A DNA stretch of 33,535 bases, taken from an uncultured delta proteobacterium. GTDB taxonomy: Bacteria; Desulfobacterota; Binatia; UBA9968. The translations under genes and the position numbers were made by a program. This document shows, in pieces, positions 740 through 33,535 of the stretch. The stretch is taken from assembly GCA_963804165.1 (NCBI GenBank), contig CAWDPO010000026.1, forward strand, positions 1 through 33,535, written 5' to 3'. Within the stretch, counting starts at the first letter, position 1, and the number at the start of each line of letters is the position of its first letter. The notes under the pieces are model-generated. The model did not search any database. It was not told where the DNA came from and worked only from the letters and a program-made list of their open reading frames with translations.

Positions 740-2675
740 CTACCTTCGATCGCATCCGCCGAGCTTCAGCGACATCGACGCAATTTCCGGGATAGGGCGG
801 ATAGCCGACAACCGGCTCTCGTTTGACAGCGTTCCTTGACTTTTGGCAATCACAGCGGCCATCTCCGCAACCGTGGGTGAATCCAGCAGGAACTTTATAG
901 GCAGTTCTAGTTTGAACTCCATGACGATTCTCGAGATGACCTGAGTAGCCGCCAGCGAATGGCCGCCGAGGTCGAAAAAAGTGTCGTGGATGCCCACCTG
1001 TTTCAACCCCAACACCTCCGCCCAGATTTTTGCTAGTTTCTCTTCAATGGGATTTCTAGGCGGGACGTACAAGTTATCCAGTGCAGGCCGCGAATCATCC
1101 GGCACCGGAAGCCCGTGGCGATCCAACTTACCGGCAGGCGTCGTCGGCATTGCCGCCAGCATCACAAAGGCCGAAGGAATCATGTATTCGGGCAGCGTTT
1201 TGCGAAGCCATCGGCGCAACTCGCTTACGGTGATCCCGGGCCATTTATGCGGCACGCAATAAGCCACCAGCCGCCTTTCCCCGGCGTGATCCGCTTGACC
1301 GATGACAATGGCTTCCTTGACGCCGTCATGCCGCAGCGAAACCCGCACTATCTCGGCGATCTCAACCTGAACCCCTGATTTTTATTTGCGAATCCTTGCG
1401 CCCCCCGTGGAACAGACACCCATCGTCGGTGAGCCAGCCTAGATCGCCGCTCAAATAGGTTCTTTCATCCCCGCCGTTCGGATCGGACAAGAATCTGATC
1501 GGTCATCACGCGCATGCGCCAGTAGCCCGGTGAAAGAAAGCGGCTTCTGATGGCGATCTCCCCGATCGCGCCTGCTTTGGCTGGTTCTCCGTCATCATCG
1601 AGTATAAGGATTTGCAAATCCTCATGTGCATAACCCACAGGCACATCGTTGTTTTGAATTTCTGTCTCTTGTCGATCATGTAGTGGCTCACCTTCCCCGC
1701 TTCGCCGCAACCCAACCTCCCAACCAATATACACTCGTCGGCGAAATGCTTTTTATAGATTTCCACATCGTTCGCATAAACCGGTTCGCCTCCGATGCAA
1801 AGCAGGCGCAGGTGCGGGAAGCTCTCGCCGGAAAGAGCCCGCGAAGTGCCGGAAAGAGGATGACACGGAATCGAAAACGGTAATCTCTTCATGAATCAAC
1901 CAAGCAGCGAGACGAACGAATCCGTCCTTTGCGACGCTATACGGATAAACAGCGGCGCCGTTGAGCAAGCCGTCAAACAAATCAGCGATGGACCCGGAAG
2001 TGCTCGGTGATCGAAGCAGCGCCATTCGGTCGCGCGGTGAAAAATGAGCCGCAAGGGTATCCCGTAATAGGGTGTGGAGAATATTTCGGTGCGTCTGCAT
2101 GACACCCTTGGGCTGGCCGGTCGAACCGGACGTATAAATCAAAGCGGCAAGACTGTCCGGAGATAAGCATAGATCGAGATTTTCACCGCCGGAACTGCTT
2201 TCAAGTTCATCGATGTTGATGAGGCAAGTCCCCTCTTGAAGATTAGCTTTTGCGAACGGTAGAGTCGCATTGCCGGCGATCAGCCAGCGCGCCTGCGAAT
2301 CAGCCAGCAAGTATTTGATTCTTTCCTTGGGAAAGGACGGTCGATAACAACGAAGATCTTGCCTGCTTTCAGGATGCCGAGCATAGCCGGGATAACCGGC
2401 CCGCCATGCTCCAGGAAGATCGCTACCGGCTCATTTCCCTCGCCTTGTCGATCTATTATTGCCCTAGCCAAACGATTGGCGGTCCGATTGAGTTCGTCAT
2501 AGGTCAGCGCGCAACCGCTCATACTGACCGCTGGCCACTCCGGATACATCCAAACGATCTTTTGAAACCGTTCGGGGATCGACGATTCAACGTCAGCTAC
2601 AGGAAACTCGACGAATATCCCCGACGGGTGAAAGCACTAAGCTCGTATACCCTCTTGTTCCGGCGGTAACTTCAT
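740..2675 (-). pseudogene. Stand-alone NRPS-like adenylation + carrier (A-T) protein, disrupted
   Basis: Starts MKLPPEQEGIRA*CFHPSG (in-frame TAG 2637-2639); fragments in several frames carry TYDELN, LIYTSGSTGQPKG, IGGEP, GEIAIRSRFLSPGYW, PEYMIP/GKLDR and carrier motif FFDLGGHSL; several frameshifts. Confidence 0.88.
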
Positions 2676-2901
2676 ACTGCTGGCAGCACTCCCGAAATCT
2701 TCTCTGTGCCGATTGGACAGCATTCTAGCCCCGCGCGAGACTAAAGGGCAAGGTGGTTGTGTTGCTAAGCGCCACTAACACTAGTCGACGCCGGGCCAGA
2801 CTTCTCTGGGTTGATAAAACTGAAGTCTTGAAGGTCGCCACGTGCTCTCTGATCGTCATGAAGTGAGCGACGCGATGGCCGTCAGGGGAGCGTGTACGGT
2901 C

Positions 2902-3735
2902 TCATTCCTCGACGGCGATGAAACGGCAAGGCGATGCGCCGCCTTCTTTGATCAATAGAGGAAGGATGATCATCTTCACCCGAAGCTTCGAGATTTTGTC
3001 GCATTCGACGAGGCACTTGCAACCTGCGATGGATTTTCTGATCAGTGCGCCATAGCTGCTCGCATGCGGGCTGCCGTGCCGGTGAGCACCCAGATCAAGC
3101 ACCCGTTCCCGTGCTTCGGCGGAAGGCCAGGGCTTGGGGTGGGGAATCATCGGACTTTCACCGCGAAACCAGTTGTTGCCTTGGACTCTGGGCGGATTGA
3201 CCAAGCCGCAATCGGTCATAAAAATGCCGCTCCCCATCTCGTCCATTTTCTTCGCCAAGAGCGCGGCCGCGTCAAAATGGATGCTCGGAGTTCTCTTGTA
3301 GTAGTCGAGCCCGAGTCGTAGGCTCGCGCGCGCGTGCCCCAACCGGTGCGAATCAGCACCTCGTCTCCTTTTCGGAAATCGGCGTCCTTGATCGCCTTGT
3401 CCATCTCGTCACCCGTAATCTCGTCTGTTCCGGCGCTCTGATATCCAGGATCACCGTGTCTCTGAGAATCAGTCGATCGAGCGGGATCTGGTCGAGCGTC
3501 CATGAAAACTTGGGGTCCGGTTGCAAAGGCGTGGTGTCGAAGGGCATGCGCTGATGCGGCACCATGAAGGGACTGCCGGTTTCGCCGTCGAGTTTCATGC
3601 GCGTCATCCTGAGGCCGTGCTTGTTATAATACATATACTCCCAAAGCCGCACGGAAGAGTTGGTAAAGGGCAAAATCTCTCCGTAGCCCGCGCCTTCCAA
3701 ATCGGCATGGTCAAGTCGATCATTTTCATGGTCAT
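2902..3735 (-). pseudogene. Cyclase/kynurenine-formamidase-fold protein, three apparent frameshifts
   Basis: Joined frames give MKMIDLTMPIW..., IPLDRLILRDTVILDI, GDEVLIRTGW, P.I..DAA..L, ILPLLIKEGGASPCRFIAVEE; start overlaps upstream stop (ATGA). Confidence 0.75.
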
Positions 3736-4951: not shown

Positions 4952-5091
4952 CTGGTCTCCTGAATGAAAGTTCGTTCACCGCCAGGGTCGTGCTGGGTCG
5001 CACTAGGCTATCTTCTTGCCAACCTGCCAACCGCAATGGCTTCAGATCAGCGCTCATCGGGTAGAGGTCGTTGGTGTTCCCTTCTAGAACG

Positions 5092-5297
5092 TTTTGAACG
5101 GACCCCGGACTTGATCCGGGGGATTGAACGACTGGAACGATTGGAACTGGCTGCAGTATTGCTGGGCGCGTGGCATCGTTTTCTTAGAGGTCGCTTTTCG
5201 GCTTTCAAAACCCACCGCGAAGCTCTCTAAACGATGCTTTCTACGCTATGTTCTATTGTCAACTCAAGCTGTTGTCGTCGTCCGAGCCGGACTAACC
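5092..5297. repeat. Composite repeat: 9-bp TTGAACG array + CCCCGGA/TCCGGGG hairpin + RAYT-upstream module
   Basis: 5165-5297 aligns with 13328-13460; on the minus strand it ends in ATGCCACGCGCC (MPRA), the start of the RAYT relic at 20422; hairpin repeated at 15635-15655. Confidence 0.85.
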
Positions 5298-12250: not shown

Positions 12251-12409
12251 GTCGTACTTCGTGGCCGTCCGCGCGGCCGCCCATCACTAATCCAATCGAA
12301 TCGTCAAGAATAGAAAGCGTGACCCCCTAATCACCTGCACATTTCGACATTTCGGGAATTATCGAAACGTGGAAGGTGCTATCGGAATGTTTTCCCCAGA
12401 GTCTTGCGC

Positions 12410-15619: not shown

Positions 15620-15873
15620 TAACGATTTGAACGGACCCCGGACTTCATCCGGGGGATTGAACGACTCAACAGACGAGTCTTGGTTCGGGACTGTTGCCTG
15701 TTGCCTCATGCCTCATGCCTATTTGATGGTGCCAGCCATGACCTGGCAGAAAGTAGCAGGTGGTCTCCTTAAAGGCGGCTCTTCTGCGTCAAAAAGCTAC
15801 CTCTAAGCCTTTAAACGATGCCTTTTATGCTACCTTCAGTTGTGAAATCAACAGCTTCCCTTGGTCCGACCCG
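15620..15873. repeat. Composite repeat (9-bp array, hairpin, heptamers, diverged RAYT-upstream module)
   Basis: TTGAACGGACCCCGGACTTCATCCGGGGGATTGAACG as at 5094-5130; CTGTTGCCTGTTGCCTC..GCCTCATGCCTA as at 13290; ends GGTCCGACCC 15863-15872. Confidence 0.8.
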
Positions 15874-24917: not shown

Positions 24918-25079
24918 ATGAGGATACATTTCCGTCGAGTTGACGGTTAAAGGAAGAAATGTTTTTGTTGGTTGATTTTGCGCTTATTGAGATTGCATTG
25001 AATTCTCCATCAATTCATTTCAGTGAATATGAAATTCGAGATTGGCTAGATTAGAAAGCCTGCCCCCCTGGTTTCCCCC

Positions 25080-29731: not shown

Positions 29732-30104
29732 TCAGAGACATTTGTAGCTCGTCAGGCAACCCGGATCGTCCTCGCAGTCGGACAAAGAATCAGCATGAGT
29801 CGTCTCAGGCGCTTCCCGGATCAGAACAAGATCACGGGACAAGGATTGTCGAGTCCAGAGCGTCCGGAGTCGTGGATCTGGCCCGTTTGACCGCGGGGTC
29901 TTGACTGATTGGGTTGCAAAGGCACAATTGCTCGCTATAAGGTTTCAGCTCCTGGATGCCTCTCCCTCAGTTCATGAACGATTGGCTCGGGATCGAATTG
30001 GAACACGGCCAGCAAGAGGGTCGGTTGATGTGGTTAAGGCACCGCAAAGTTAGCTCGTAGCCCTGAACATGTTTGTACGTTGATGCAAAGATAGCTTGAA
30101 TTCT

Positions 30105-31628
30105 ATGACTGAAGGTCCATCCGCGCAAACCGTTGCTCAAGCGGATCCGAACCGAGCCGGTTGTGGAACCCTTTTTTCCATTCTTCGAGACGCCGCTGCA
30201 ACTTCGCCTGAGCAAGCGGCGCTGGTTCATGACGGCCAGAGTTTGCGCTACCGAGACCTTTATTCCGCCGCCGAGACGCTCGCATGTGAATTGAAAAAGG
30301 CGGGCGTTAGCGCCGGAGACCTAGTGGGCCTCATCGCTGCGAGCACCGCGGCATACATGACTATGTTCTTCGCCGTCGCGCGCATCGGCGCGATCGCTGT
30401 TCCTATTCCGCGCGGCTCAAAGCCGAGTGAGGTCGCTGATTTGGCGGATCAAATAAACTTAAATGTCTTTTGTTATTCCCGGAAGTTTGCGTCGCTCATT
30501 CCTGATGGCCCTATGGAAGGGGCCGTGGAACTGACGCCGGAATTGGCGGATCGCGAAGCTCTCTCGATAAGGCGACACGGCATCGGAGAAACCCTCGACG
30601 CCAAGCGCGAGATGCTCTTAAAGGCGTCGGTCGGCATGATTCGTTTCAGTTCCGGCACGACAGGCAAGTCCAAAGGGATTATGCTGTCGACACCTGCGAT
30701 CTTGGCGCGCGCGAAAGCGTTTTCTTTTGCCTACAGTCTCACGAAGAGCTCGTGCATGCTTCATCTTCTTTCGGCAGAACTCGCTACTCCCACTTTGTTG
30801 GGTTGTATGTTACAAGCAGCAACCGTTGTCTTAGAAGACATTCACAGGCTGGAGTCGATTGCCCAGTTGATTCGAATGCATGGAGTCACTCACATCCATG
30901 CTTCACCGCTGTTTTACGGAATGATTGTCGGCAGCGGGGCGATTAACGCCGATGATCTTCGCGGCGTGAGATATGTCATCAGCACCGGAGCGCCGCTAGC
31001 TGTCCCGGTCGCAACGGCTTTTAGTGACAAATTTGCTCGTGAAATATTTCAGTATTATGCATTGGCGGAATGTGGCACTGTCTTCGCCAATACTAGCCGA
31101 GACGTGGCCAAGCGAGGGACCTCAGGTGTGCTTGTGCCTGGGTCCGACGTCAAGCTGGTGAATTCGACAGGATCTGGCGTTTATGAATTCGGCGAGCTCC
31201 TGGTTAAGGGTTCGGGGCTTTTCGAAGGTTACTACCGGCCGTGGAGGTTGGGAAACGAAGTTCTGGAGGACGGGTGGTTCAGAACCGGTGATGTCGCTAG
31301 GCGGGACGCGGATGGGTATTACTGGATTGTCGGCCGCACGAAGGATGTGATCAATGTGGGCGCCGTCAAAGTATTCCCGGATGAAATCGAGGAAGTGCTC
31401 CTGAGTCATCCCGCAGTGGGAGAGGCTGTAGTCTTCGGGGCTTCAGATCCCAGGTTTGGAGAGGTCCCCAGGGCAAAAGTAGTTCTGGATCCCGGCTCAA
31501 CCTGCACGGAGAAGGAGTTGATCGACTTCAGCAATCAGAGATTGTCCGTGTTCAAGAGGCTGCGGTCCATTGAGATCGTTCTCGAACTCCCGAAGACGGC
31601 CACGGGGAAATTGAAACGTAGCGTTTGA
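30105..31628 (+). CDS. Class I adenylate-forming enzyme (acyl-CoA/acyl-ACP ligase family)
   Basis: FSSGTTGKSKG, STGAPL, YALAE, GELLVKG, GWFRTGD, GRTKDVI, LPKTATGK. Confidence 0.92.
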   Translation: MTEGPSAQTVAQADPNRAGCGTLFSILRDAAATSPEQAALVHDGQSLRYRDLYSAAETLACELKKAGVSAGDLVGLIAASTAAYMTMFFAVARIGAIAVPIPRGSKPSEVADLADQINLNVFCYSRKFASLIPDGPMEGAVELTPELADREALSIRRHGIGETLDAKREMLLKASVGMIRFSSGTTGKSKGIMLSTPAILARAKAFSFAYSLTKSSCMLHLLSAELATPTLLGCMLQAATVVLEDIHRLESIAQLIRMHGVTHIHASPLFYGMIVGSGAINADDLRGVRYVISTGAPLAVPVATAFSDKFAREIFQYYALAECGTVFANTSRDVAKRGTSGVLVPGSDVKLVNSTGSGVYEFGELLVKGSGLFEGYYRPWRLGNEVLEDGWFRTGDVARRDADGYYWIVGRTKDVINVGAVKVFPDEIEEVLLSHPAVGEAVVFGASDPRFGEVPRAKVVLDPGSTCTEKELIDFSNQRLSVFKRLRSIEIVLELPKTATGKLKRSV

Positions 31629-31647
31629 TCGTTCTAGCAAGGGAGGC

Positions 31648-31881
31648 ATGGACCGACGCATGTCGAGAGAGCGAGTGCTGAGAGTGGTCGAGTCGATTTT
31701 AGGCCCCGACCATAATGGGGATGGAGCGAGCCTCGAACTGGAGTCTATGAAAATGCTCGAGTTGGTCGTGGCAATCGAGCAGGAGTTCGGAATACAGATT
31801 CCTGATGACGCTACAATAGCCGATATCATGTCATCGGTCGACACGATCGTCACATACCTTGATAACAACCGTATCGGATAG
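31648..31881 (+). CDS. Acyl carrier protein
   Basis: GGAGG RBS; LELESMKMLELVVAIEQEFGIQIPDD with Ser at phosphopantetheine position (ES rather than DS). Confidence 0.85.
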   Translation: MDRRMSRERVLRVVESILGPDHNGDGASLELESMKMLELVVAIEQEFGIQIPDDATIADIMSSVDTIVTYLDNNRIG

Positions 31882-31959
31882 CTCTCACCGCCTCTACACG
31901 TGATATGTAGGAGTAGCCACGAAGTAGCCACGAAGGGTCTACCATCGGAATTTAGCAGG

Positions 31960-32160
31960 TAGCAGGATCTAAAAGAATCCTGTAAAGAAATTCTTGACGA
32001 GGGTGTGGCTCTTGGGGTCAGTGGCCTGTTCATTCAGGCTCACCCAGTCTGAAATGCCGCCCTCGTCACCTGCATCATCCGAGGGTCGACCGGGATGGTG
32101 CCATATTCTCTTACCAGAATACGTGGCTCTGTAAGTAGACGAGACCGAAGGATGATGAAA
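31960..32160 (+). ncRNA. Predicted bridge RNA (5' stem-loop, target-binding loop, donor-binding loop)
   Basis: CAGGAT/ATCCTG hairpin; stem 31995-32005/32058-32068; stem 32073-32087/32143-32157; guides CGGGATG-GT and CGTGGCT match the element's own ends. Confidence 0.82.
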
Positions 32161-32185
32161 ACTCGATCTACGAAGGAGGAGCTAC

Positions 32186-33469
32186 GTGTCAGAAGAAAAG
32201 CCTTTAGAACTGAGAGTCAGTGTGGACGTGGGATACCGTCGTCACAGTGTAGCGATGGGGTTATCCAGCGGCGAGGTGCTCGAAGAGTTCGAAGTCGATC
32301 ACCGGATCGAGGGTTTTCAAGAGTTCTTTTCTCGTATCGAGAGGCAACGTAAGACAAGGAACTGTCCGGTAGCCGTAGCCATGGAAGGTTACAACGGCTA
32401 CGCGCGGCCACTGGATAGCATGGTCCGTCAACGGGGCTACCGGCTTTATAATCTCAATAACTTAAAGTTTGCCCGGTTCAAGGAGATCTTTCCCGCAGCC
32501 GCCAAAAGTGACCGTATCGATGCGCGCAAGGGATTGGAGCTGTTTCAGTTGAGCGATCATCTGCCGTTGGCCAAAGAAGTGCTTCAGGAAGTCACTGGGA
32601 CACCGCCCGAGAATGAAGTCCTCAAACGATTAACGCGGCGCCGGCGACGATTAGTCAACGAGCGGGTGCGAGTGGTGAACAGTCTACAGGCCGATCTGCA
32701 AGCGGTGTGCCCTGGTTTGTTAGAGATCACTGGAGAAGCGAGCAATCAGTGGTTTTTAAATTTTCTTCTCAGCGCGGACACCCTGCCTCAGCTGGCCCGG
32801 TTACGGCGCAGCACAGTGCTGAAGATCCCCTCGGTGGGAGTGAAGTGTGCTGCCACTATCGAGGCCTGGCAGAAGCGTGCCCATTTTAGCCAAGAGGTTA
32901 AGTGGGTCGGCGAGATGATCCAAGAAGATGCCAAGCGGTGTCTCGAACTCGATGAAAAGATCAAACGGTTGGAAACCAAGATCGCCGAGGTTGCTAAGAA
33001 CTCCAAGATCGCCAAGATTTTACGATCGATTCCAGGGTTTGGTGCCGTGTGTACTTCAGAGTTGGCCGGAGAGATTGGAACCATTGAGCGGTTTGCCTCC
33101 GAAGGAAGTATTTCGTTGTATCTCGGCATGTCCACGTTGGACAACAGCTCGGGGAAGTATCAGGGAACTAAAGCACCCAAGCACGTGAACACTCGCGCCA
33201 AGGCAGCGATGATGATCGCCTTGGATCGGCATCGAAAGTACGTGCCGGAGTCGCAAAGATACTATGAAAAGAAGCGCAGCGAGGGAAAGAAACACAACCA
33301 GGCGATTCGAGCTCTAGGTCGGCACTTGTCCCGGATCATTTACAAAATGCTCACCGAAGAACGCGAGTACCAGATACGCCCCGAAAAAGGGAATACCAAG
33401 GCCAAGGTCAAATCGAGAGCGTTCGTTAAAACGCAAATACGGAGGCCGAAACTCTCGGCGAAGTCTTAA
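32186..33469 (+). CDS. IS110-family DEDD transposase/recombinase
   Basis: AAGGAGG RBS, GTG start; VSVDVG, VAMEG, KSDRIDA, LRSIPGFG, SSGK, ALGRHL; intact 427 aa. Confidence 0.95.
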   Translation: MSEEKPLELRVSVDVGYRRHSVAMGLSSGEVLEEFEVDHRIEGFQEFFSRIERQRKTRNCPVAVAMEGYNGYARPLDSMVRQRGYRLYNLNNLKFARFKEIFPAAAKSDRIDARKGLELFQLSDHLPLAKEVLQEVTGTPPENEVLKRLTRRRRRLVNERVRVVNSLQADLQAVCPGLLEITGEASNQWFLNFLLSADTLPQLARLRRSTVLKIPSVGVKCAATIEAWQKRAHFSQEVKWVGEMIQEDAKRCLELDEKIKRLETKIAEVAKNSKIAKILRSIPGFGAVCTSELAGEIGTIERFASEGSISLYLGMSTLDNSSGKYQGTKAPKHVNTRAKAAMMIALDRHRKYVPESQRYYEKKRSEGKKHNQAIRALGRHLSRIIYKMLTEEREYQIRPEKGNTKAKVKSRAFVKTQIRRPKLSAKS

Positions 33470-33535
33470 AGTCGAAAGTCTACGAGCAGAATACCGAAAA
33501 ATCGGCTCCATCCGCTTGAAATTTTCAGCGGGATG

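Follow-up and report, generated by a model that had tools for sequence, protein, structure and literature searches.

What kind of element carries the recombinase gene at the right-hand edge of this stretch of DNA, where does it begin and end, and which bases does its RNA read? The window, that is, the whole stretch of 33,535 nucleotides that was analysed, is the entire contig C26 of an assembly from an uncultured delta proteobacterium and stops at position 33535. An earlier note on this DNA had placed there an insertion sequence of the IS110 type with a bridge RNA and had assigned its left end, core, donor, target and guides. Positions 31938-33535 are one copy of an IS110-group insertion sequence of ~1599 bp; the copy is ~3 nt short, without its last base and the right copy of the core, because the contig ends there. 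The best explanation of the locus, which taken as a whole we hold to be very probable, is an IS110-group element with a DEDD/serine recombinase, a bridge RNA of ~200 nt in its left end, a TC core and a revised guide map. Of the four guides, the earlier note had read only the left donor guide correctly.

Boundaries of the element and its core

The limits of the element emerge from its other copies, from homologues and from an empty site. The homologues derive from 178 relatives found in species-representative genomes, 80 of which were fetched. A sister copy on contig C12 is 99.9% identical (1 mismatch in 1600), and the identity spans 31936 to 33535; left of 31936 there is no likeness, C12 reading ...GGAAAAGCGAG and the window ...GTAGCCACGAAG. 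Identity with C12 and with a further copy on contig C18 begins at the first bases of the element, and six homologues with 80-85% protein identity are alignable exactly from GTCTACCAT, a string that is nearly invariant in 44 homologues. Among the public contigs of run X1, other left flanks part from the window at 31934.

The core is revealed by metagenome contig L104, which is the C12 locus without the element. The empty site reads ...GGCGAGA-TC-AGACTTTCATTTC..., its right flank being given also as AGACTTTC. The occupied site of C12 reads ...AGCGAGG-TC-TACCATCGG... at its left junction and ...AGCGGGATGT-TC-AGACTTTCATTTC... at its right junction, or overall ...AGCGAGG-TC-[TACC...GGGATGT-TC]-AGACTTTC.... 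TC is single before the insertion and doubled after it, and is therefore the duplicated dinucleotide. This duplication was tested on the sister copy, the right junction of the window copy lying beyond the assembly.

About 60 homologues, together with C12 and L104, put the left end at ...GGG-TC|TACCAT (31938-40). All features of the element given here lie on the forward strand. The left core copy occupies 31938-31939, as judged from L104 versus both C12 junctions and from the comparison of copies, and the first element bases, the right donor TACCATCG, extend from 31940 to 31947; within them TACCAT (31940-45) also has the look of a -10 hexamer. The earlier note had started the element after a GT at 31924, 14 nt too far to the left, and had taken GT as the core. 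The right end, ~67 nt, runs from 33470 to 33535, its last base and the right core copy falling past the end of the contig. The earlier note had also foretold GT directly after the terminal CGGGATG. The corresponding bases of the window copy are unassembled, and the sister copy has TTC: over 66 distinct right junctions, from homologues and the host's own copies, CGGGATG is followed by TTC in 58, ATC in 4, TCG in 3 and GTC in 1.

The base that precedes TC is A in the empty site of L104, G at the left junction of C12 and T at its right junction. Family-wide, G stands there in 61 of 67 left junctions, and T or A in 62 of 66 right junctions. A heteroduplex at this base was considered as the origin of this difference between the two sides and was rejected, as it fails to yield the observed G and T from the A of L104.

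A bridge RNA in the left end

The non-coding left end measures 246 nt (31940-32185) against ~67 nt for the right end (33470-33536), and it is the left end that harbours the RNA. Bases 31955-32165 have a minimum free energy fold with a z-score of -4.2. On a MAFFT alignment of 44 homologues, the most distant with ~50% protein identity, the 30 pairs of the structure are formed in 96.5% of cells, and 18 of them show two-sided changes; the observed pairing values were attained by 0 of 500 shuffles, and slid controls were 35-52% paired. The pairs that RNAalifold placed inside the guides (columns 107-109/143-145, 192-193/242-243 and 229-232/238-241) never vary and were excluded from the counted structure.

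The fold opens with a closing helix (31955-32073), in which GCAGGT at 31955-60 pairs with ACCTGC at 32068-73 and encloses both a 5' stem-loop (~31962-31983) and the target-binding stem-loop. This helix has compensatory variants: GCAGAT/ATCTGC, GTGGAT/ATCCAC, GTAGGT/ACCTAC and ACAGGT/GCCTGT. The target-binding stem-loop (loop 1, 31996-32067) consists of an outer stem, 31996-32009 with 32056-32067, and an inner hairpin, 32022-26 with 32037-42; two-sided changes affect 6 of the 12 outer pairs and 4 of the 5 inner pairs. The donor-binding stem-loop (loop 2, 32075-32155) is built from three stems, 32075-80/32150-55, 32084-87/32143-46 and 32100-02/32125-27, the innermost of which shows a compensatory change from C-G to U-A in 5 of the 44 sequences. 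Conservation of the loop regions far exceeds that of the protein, and loop 2 hardly changes even among homologues with 50% protein identity.

Fold and covariation thus agree with the overall architecture that the earlier note had proposed, an IS110-type element with a 5' stem-loop followed by a target loop and then a donor loop. The parallel layout that it had seen in the two internal loops is in part superficial: in loop 1 the motif CTGA is a variable guide, which appears as TTGA, CCGA or GCGA in homologues, and loop 2 has a constant CTCTG with 3 variable nt after it.

Target guides and their covariation with flanking DNA

The guides were sought with the rules of IS621 from E. coli, which are taken here from parts of two papers, PMC11208160 and PMC11208158: a left guide reads like the top strand, a right guide is complementary to it, and the core forms part of every guide (PMC11208160). 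The left target guide, CTTGGGG plus core TC in the sense of the left flank, lies at 32011-32019, and the left flanks of homologues end ...GGG(G)TC. Over 61 distinct junctions, identity between guide and left flank at positions 3-5 is 0.44, 0.51 and 0.74 for cognate pairings against 0.31, 0.35 and 0.54 for non-cognate ones, in counts that keep the mis-anchored rows L051, L041, L061 and L066 and the register of L072-78. Clear cases are L030, whose guide and flank both read AGCGG-TC, L039 (CTCTG-TC), L067 (CTGAGGG-TC) and L036, and the guide matches its flank 10/10 in L082 and L042.

The right target guide, AGTCT plus GA, the latter pairing with core TC, is located at 32046-32053 and ends with A32053, a candidate handshake base. 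The right flank of C12, TC-AGACT, pairs with it 7/7. Pairing at positions 4, 5 and 7 amounts to 0.93, 0.80 and 0.65 in 60 distinct cognate junctions and to 0.72, 0.65 and 0.48 at the same positions in 3456 non-cognate pairings, the mis-anchored rows L028 and L055 being kept. Perfect or near-perfect cases comprise L026, L066, L020, L021, L039, L051, L069 and the L072-78 group, and G:U pairs occur in L007, L009 and L010. At the level of sequence, both target guides are thereby shown to covary with their flanks across homologues.

The revised 14-nt target CTTGGGGTCAGACT (CTTGGGG-TC-AGACT) has one perfect, unoccupied 14/14 site in the host genome, at ~158398 of contig C34, where 0.06 are expected, whereas the target that the earlier note had deduced, GGGGTCA-GT-RYTGG, has 0 exact matches there. 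The C34 site belongs to an intergenic motif family, GGGG-TCAG-N-CTTTCTAWTCT....

Donor guides

All the strings on which the earlier note had built its donor and target are present in the window: CGGGATG-GT at 32091-32099, CGGGATG at 33529-33535, CGTGGCT at 32122-32128, GT-AGCCACG at 31924-31932, GGGGTCA-GT at 32014-32022 and ACCCAGT at 32042-32048. Yet GTAGCCACG also occurs at 31913-31921, which had been missed, and AGCCACG lies outside the element. The complement of CGTGGCT is found a second time because the DNA that adjoins the insertion on its left (31913-31934) is an 11-nt direct repeat in tandem, GTAGCCACGAA x2. Matches to AGCCACG number 7 in the window where 4.4 are expected, a count reached by 14 of 100 shuffles, and those to CGGGATG number 5 where 6.25 are expected. 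As neither 7-mer is rare, any meaning must come from position and conservation. By this measure the two differ: all parsed homologues have CGGGATG both on the 5' arm of loop 2 and as the terminal bases of the element, and AGCCACG enjoys no such support.

The left donor guide, CGGGATG-G-T (32091-32099), therefore stands as first proposed in its 7-mer, which equals the right end (33529-35) and is conserved in all 66 distinct right junctions parsed, with an anchor that tolerated one mismatch; T32099 matches the T of the core. The right donor guide is another matter. CGTGGCT, the sequence assigned to it before, includes one arm of the covarying inner stem (32125-32127), and the actual guide consists of TG (32130-31), a 3-nt bulge and GTA-GA (32135-39), followed by C32140 as a candidate handshake base, so that the whole spans 32130-32140. 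It is complementary to TC-TAC (31938-42) and CA (31943-44) of the left end.

This register is mirrored in natural variation. In L012, L013, L014, L016 and L025 the left end TCTATC goes with a guide ATAGAC, and otherwise TCTACC goes with GTAGAC; in the L072-78 group a left junction CCCT-TC accompanies the guide GTAGA-A, and elsewhere GGGG-TC accompanies GTAGA-C. The latter pattern places C32140 and A32053 at the positions of the IS621 handshake guides. Donor-side covariation, which involves a single position of the left end besides the handshake position, is limited but clean. The earlier note had expected its guides to covary with ends and targets: in the homologues this holds for the left target, right target and right donor guides in their revised registers and fails for CGTGGCT.

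The recombinase

The protein partner is an IS110-family recombinase of 427 aa, encoded at 32186-33469 from a GTG start with GAAGGAGG upstream at 32172-79. It contains the Pfam domains PF01548 (DEDD RuvC-like; E = 8e-19) and PF02371 (Tnp; E = 4e-13), and it scores 176 bits, against a cut-off of 140, with the NCBIfam model NF033542, 'IS110 family RNA-guided transposase'. Residues D14, E67, D109, D112 and S322 are invariant across 59 distinct homologues. In a HMMER alignment E67, D109, D112 and S322 correspond to E60, D102, D105 and S241 of IS621, whose catalytic residues have described roles (PMC11208158), given an offset of +2 in the numbering of the IS621 chain that is our own deduction; D14 is placed by the start of the Pfam domain only. 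The gene looks intact, in keeping with the earlier note.

Weighing the alternatives

Several observations weigh against the explanation adopted here. L104 has A just before TC where the occupied site has G; the L104 strain is diverged, and the difference may reflect polymorphism or be left over from the mechanism itself. In the left donor guide one base is constantly mismatched: G32098, replaced by A in some homologues, stands opposite the T that follows CGGGATG. The left target guide is poorly matched by the element's own left flanks, 6/10 in the window and 5/10 in C12, and the mis-anchored rows mentioned above reside in the counts for both target guides. Few independent covariation events are seen for the donor loop, since the subfamily shows next to no variation in loop 2 or at either end. 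The joint between right and left end was not found in the Logan contigs of run X1, and a search of Rfam 15 returned no matching family at E <= 1.

The alternative that survives best retains the same element and RNA and shifts the core by one base, to an xT at 31937-38 (GT on the left, TT on the right) that is cut after T, the next C being the first base of both the right donor and the right target. It would make the 'core GT' of the earlier note half right. In IS621 the second core base is an almost invariant T, with the top-strand cut directly on its 3' side (PMC11208158), and a junction CGGGATG-GT-CTAC would fit both CGGGATG-GT (32091-99) and GTAGAC (32135-40) perfectly. Moreover, in L066, L069, L079, L083 and L084 the left target guide reads ...GGGGTT but the junction GGGGTC, and the G before TC at left junctions persists even where the rest of the flank is unlike the guide. 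Against this, it is TC that the empty site has singly and the insertion has on both sides, the base before it differing at all three places; 62 of 66 right junctions have T or A there rather than G; and the right target guide ends in GA, the complement of TC, in nearly all homologues. Under a TC core, in addition, the extra A and C after the right guides fall exactly at the IS621 handshake positions. On balance we consider an xT core unlikely and keep TC.

That the structure of the left end is a mere 5' untranslated region or regulatory leader of the recombinase gene, with incidental matches to ends and flanks, would account for the silence of Rfam, but is very improbable: the loop sequences covary with flanking DNA outside the element, they are far better conserved than the protein, and the matching family model is named for RNA guidance. 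Least credible of all is the earlier map itself, with a start after GT 31924-25, a donor CGGGATG-GT-AGCCACG, a right donor guide CGTGGCT and a target GGGGTCA-GT-RYTGG, since its 7-mer complementarity, real and twice present in the flank, involves a sequence that is not rare in the window, C12, C18, L006-L010 and L035 share nothing with the window left of 31936 (unrelated sequence taking the place of AGCCACG in C12, L006-L010 and L035), GTGGCTCTG is conserved in 44/44 sequences irrespective of the flank and is in part a stem with a compensatory change, and the proposed target and right-end GT fare as described above.

Proposed excision, junction promoter and strand exchange

By analogy with IS621, the element with its TC core would excise as a circle, whose junction is expected to read ...CAGCGGGATG-T-TC-TACCATCGG.... 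A -35-like hexamer TTGAAA is situated at 33516-21, 14 nt before the end of the window, and the distance to TACCAT is 17 bp when the missing T and TC are counted; the hexamer is unaltered in 37 of 50 distinct right-end tails, and in the remaining 13 it has one or two changed bases or is displaced by one base. The joining of right and left ends, if IS621 is a guide, would create the promoter TTGAAA-17 bp-TACCAT, which would transcribe the bridge RNA from ~31954. A tetramer of recombinase would then hold the circle junction, ...GGGATGT-TC-TACCAT..., through loop 2 and a target such as CTTGGGG-TC-AGACT through loop 1, and strands would be exchanged at TC. After the exchange, A32053 may pair with the last donor base, T, and C32140 with the last target base, G, in the manner of the IS621 handshake guides.

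Relation to known systems

The resemblance to IS621 (PMC11208160, PMC11208158) is extensive. Both combine a DEDD RuvC-like domain with a Tnp domain that contributes a catalytic serine, and in both the left end exceeds the right end and carries the RNA, in which a 5' stem-loop, a variable target loop and a conserved donor loop follow in order. Left guides of DNA sense, complementary right guides and a core in each are common to the two, as is a discontiguous right donor guide with a 3-nt bulge. Shared as well are single bases 3' of the right guides at handshake-guide positions (PMC11208158). The predicted promoter would, by the logic of IS621 (PMC11208160), likewise be split over the junction of right and left ends.

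The protein is distant from that of IS621, with a phmmer E of 8.4e-5 that covers the C-terminal part only, and is ~100 aa longer than the 328-residue chain in the Protein Data Bank (PDB). The duplicated dinucleotide is TC here and CT in IS621; the right target guide is longer and pairs over 7 nt in this element, or as many as 11 in homologues; one base of the left donor guide is constantly mismatched; and the RNA possesses an extra closing helix. A close orthologue of IS621 is ruled out by the TC core and the phmmer value. The transposase of ISCro4 (PDB 9t56), an IS110-family protein of solved structure, matches the same C-terminal region more weakly (E = 5.4e-4). Elements of the IS1111 group likewise have a DEDD recombinase and are RNA-guided, but they are described with a long right end that carries the RNA and with subterminal inverted repeats of 7-17 bp (PMC11208160); the present element has its RNA in the left end and a right end of ~67 nt.

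By every test of family membership that sequence can address, the element is an ordinary member of the IS110 group that appears to work like IS621. The finding is real yet unsurprising; bridge RNAs are predicted in 85.7% of the IS110-group elements in ISfinder (PMC11208160). The subfamily may already figure in the supplements of that paper, among its tables of orthologues and guides.

Genomic setting

Directly left of the element, at 30096-31881, lie genes for an AMP-binding enzyme of 510 aa and for a phosphopantetheine carrier protein of 77 aa. The carrier gene ends 56 nt before the element, and neither neighbouring gene is interrupted by the insertion. Insertion sites in L007, L009 and L010 have short tandem repeats on their left as well, which resemble repeated target halves (GGGGTC...), and another such repeat accompanies an unoccupied motif on contig C11.

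On the other side, a 746-nt contig of run X1 continues for 562 nt beyond position 33535. Contig C5, read as its reverse complement, begins GTCTGAC... and is a conceivable candidate for the right flank that is missing here, in which case 'GT' would follow in the window copy. A scan of metagenomes with the window's own left flank gave no match, and the genomes of 40 relatives, probed for empty sites with the left flank of the window and the right flank of C12, contained no orthologous locus, short repeats alone being recovered. The DNA right of the C12 insertion contains, at a distance of 90-200 nt, a separate short repeat of ~50-100 nt (L002 ~1300-1410); it recurs at window positions 5087-5139 and 15621-15666 and exists in many copies both in the host and in genomes of its genus.

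Remnants of the element are scattered over other contigs: the copy on C18 (56499-58101) is 84% identical and degraded, its reading frame broken into pieces, and C40 bears a 70-nt relic of a left end (122739-122808). On C34, at ~117700-117740, a right-end-like stretch (...ATCCGCTTCGGGGGAAAGGGATGA) abuts a TCAGAC target motif.

The intergenic motif GGGG-TCAG-N-CTTTCTAWTCTWGMCAATCT is repeated on the minus strand of the window at ~12298-12322 and ~25039-25063 and at about a dozen further sites in the host genome. It is distributed over many host contigs, some copies contain TTGACA, and the insertion sites of the element are of this type. In 6 of 61 distinct right flanks (L009, at 2329-3285, L005, L010, L013, L018 and L052) an open reading frame whose product starts MARP.R.E.PG..YHV begins ~30-170 nt from the insertion; the L009 product combines a Y1_Tnp domain (IS200-like) with a DnaA_C helix-turn-helix. 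Several host copies of the motif, on contigs C24, C2, C34, C23 and C35, run into remnants of a gene of the Y1_Tnp type.

Implications

The practical value of the element lies in a pair of recombinase and bridge RNA that is distant from IS621, with a TC core and a long right target guide, and in a large natural data set that fixes the positions of the guides by covariation. Reprogramming that was based on the donor (...GT-AGCCACG) and target first proposed would use the wrong left end and the wrong guide registers.

For the biology of the subfamily, a reading in two independent parts suggests itself which is decidedly tentative, and which we would not favour at present: the asymmetry next to TC is a hard-wired handshake, and the element homes beside Y1_Tnp genes. 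This widespread subfamily may use a fixed asymmetry of one base, the last target base being G in 61 of 67 left junctions and the last donor base T in 58 of 66 right junctions. These two bases may be read by C32140 and A32053 rather than by the left guides, because the left donor guide carries an obligatory mismatch at this point. If so, the hard-wired handshake could favour insertion over excision, and any reprogramming would need to respect G and T. Separately, as the conserved intergenic motif of the natural targets stands just upstream of a Y1_Tnp (IS200-like) gene in 6 of 61 distinct insertions, one family of mobile elements may home to the 5' flank of another.

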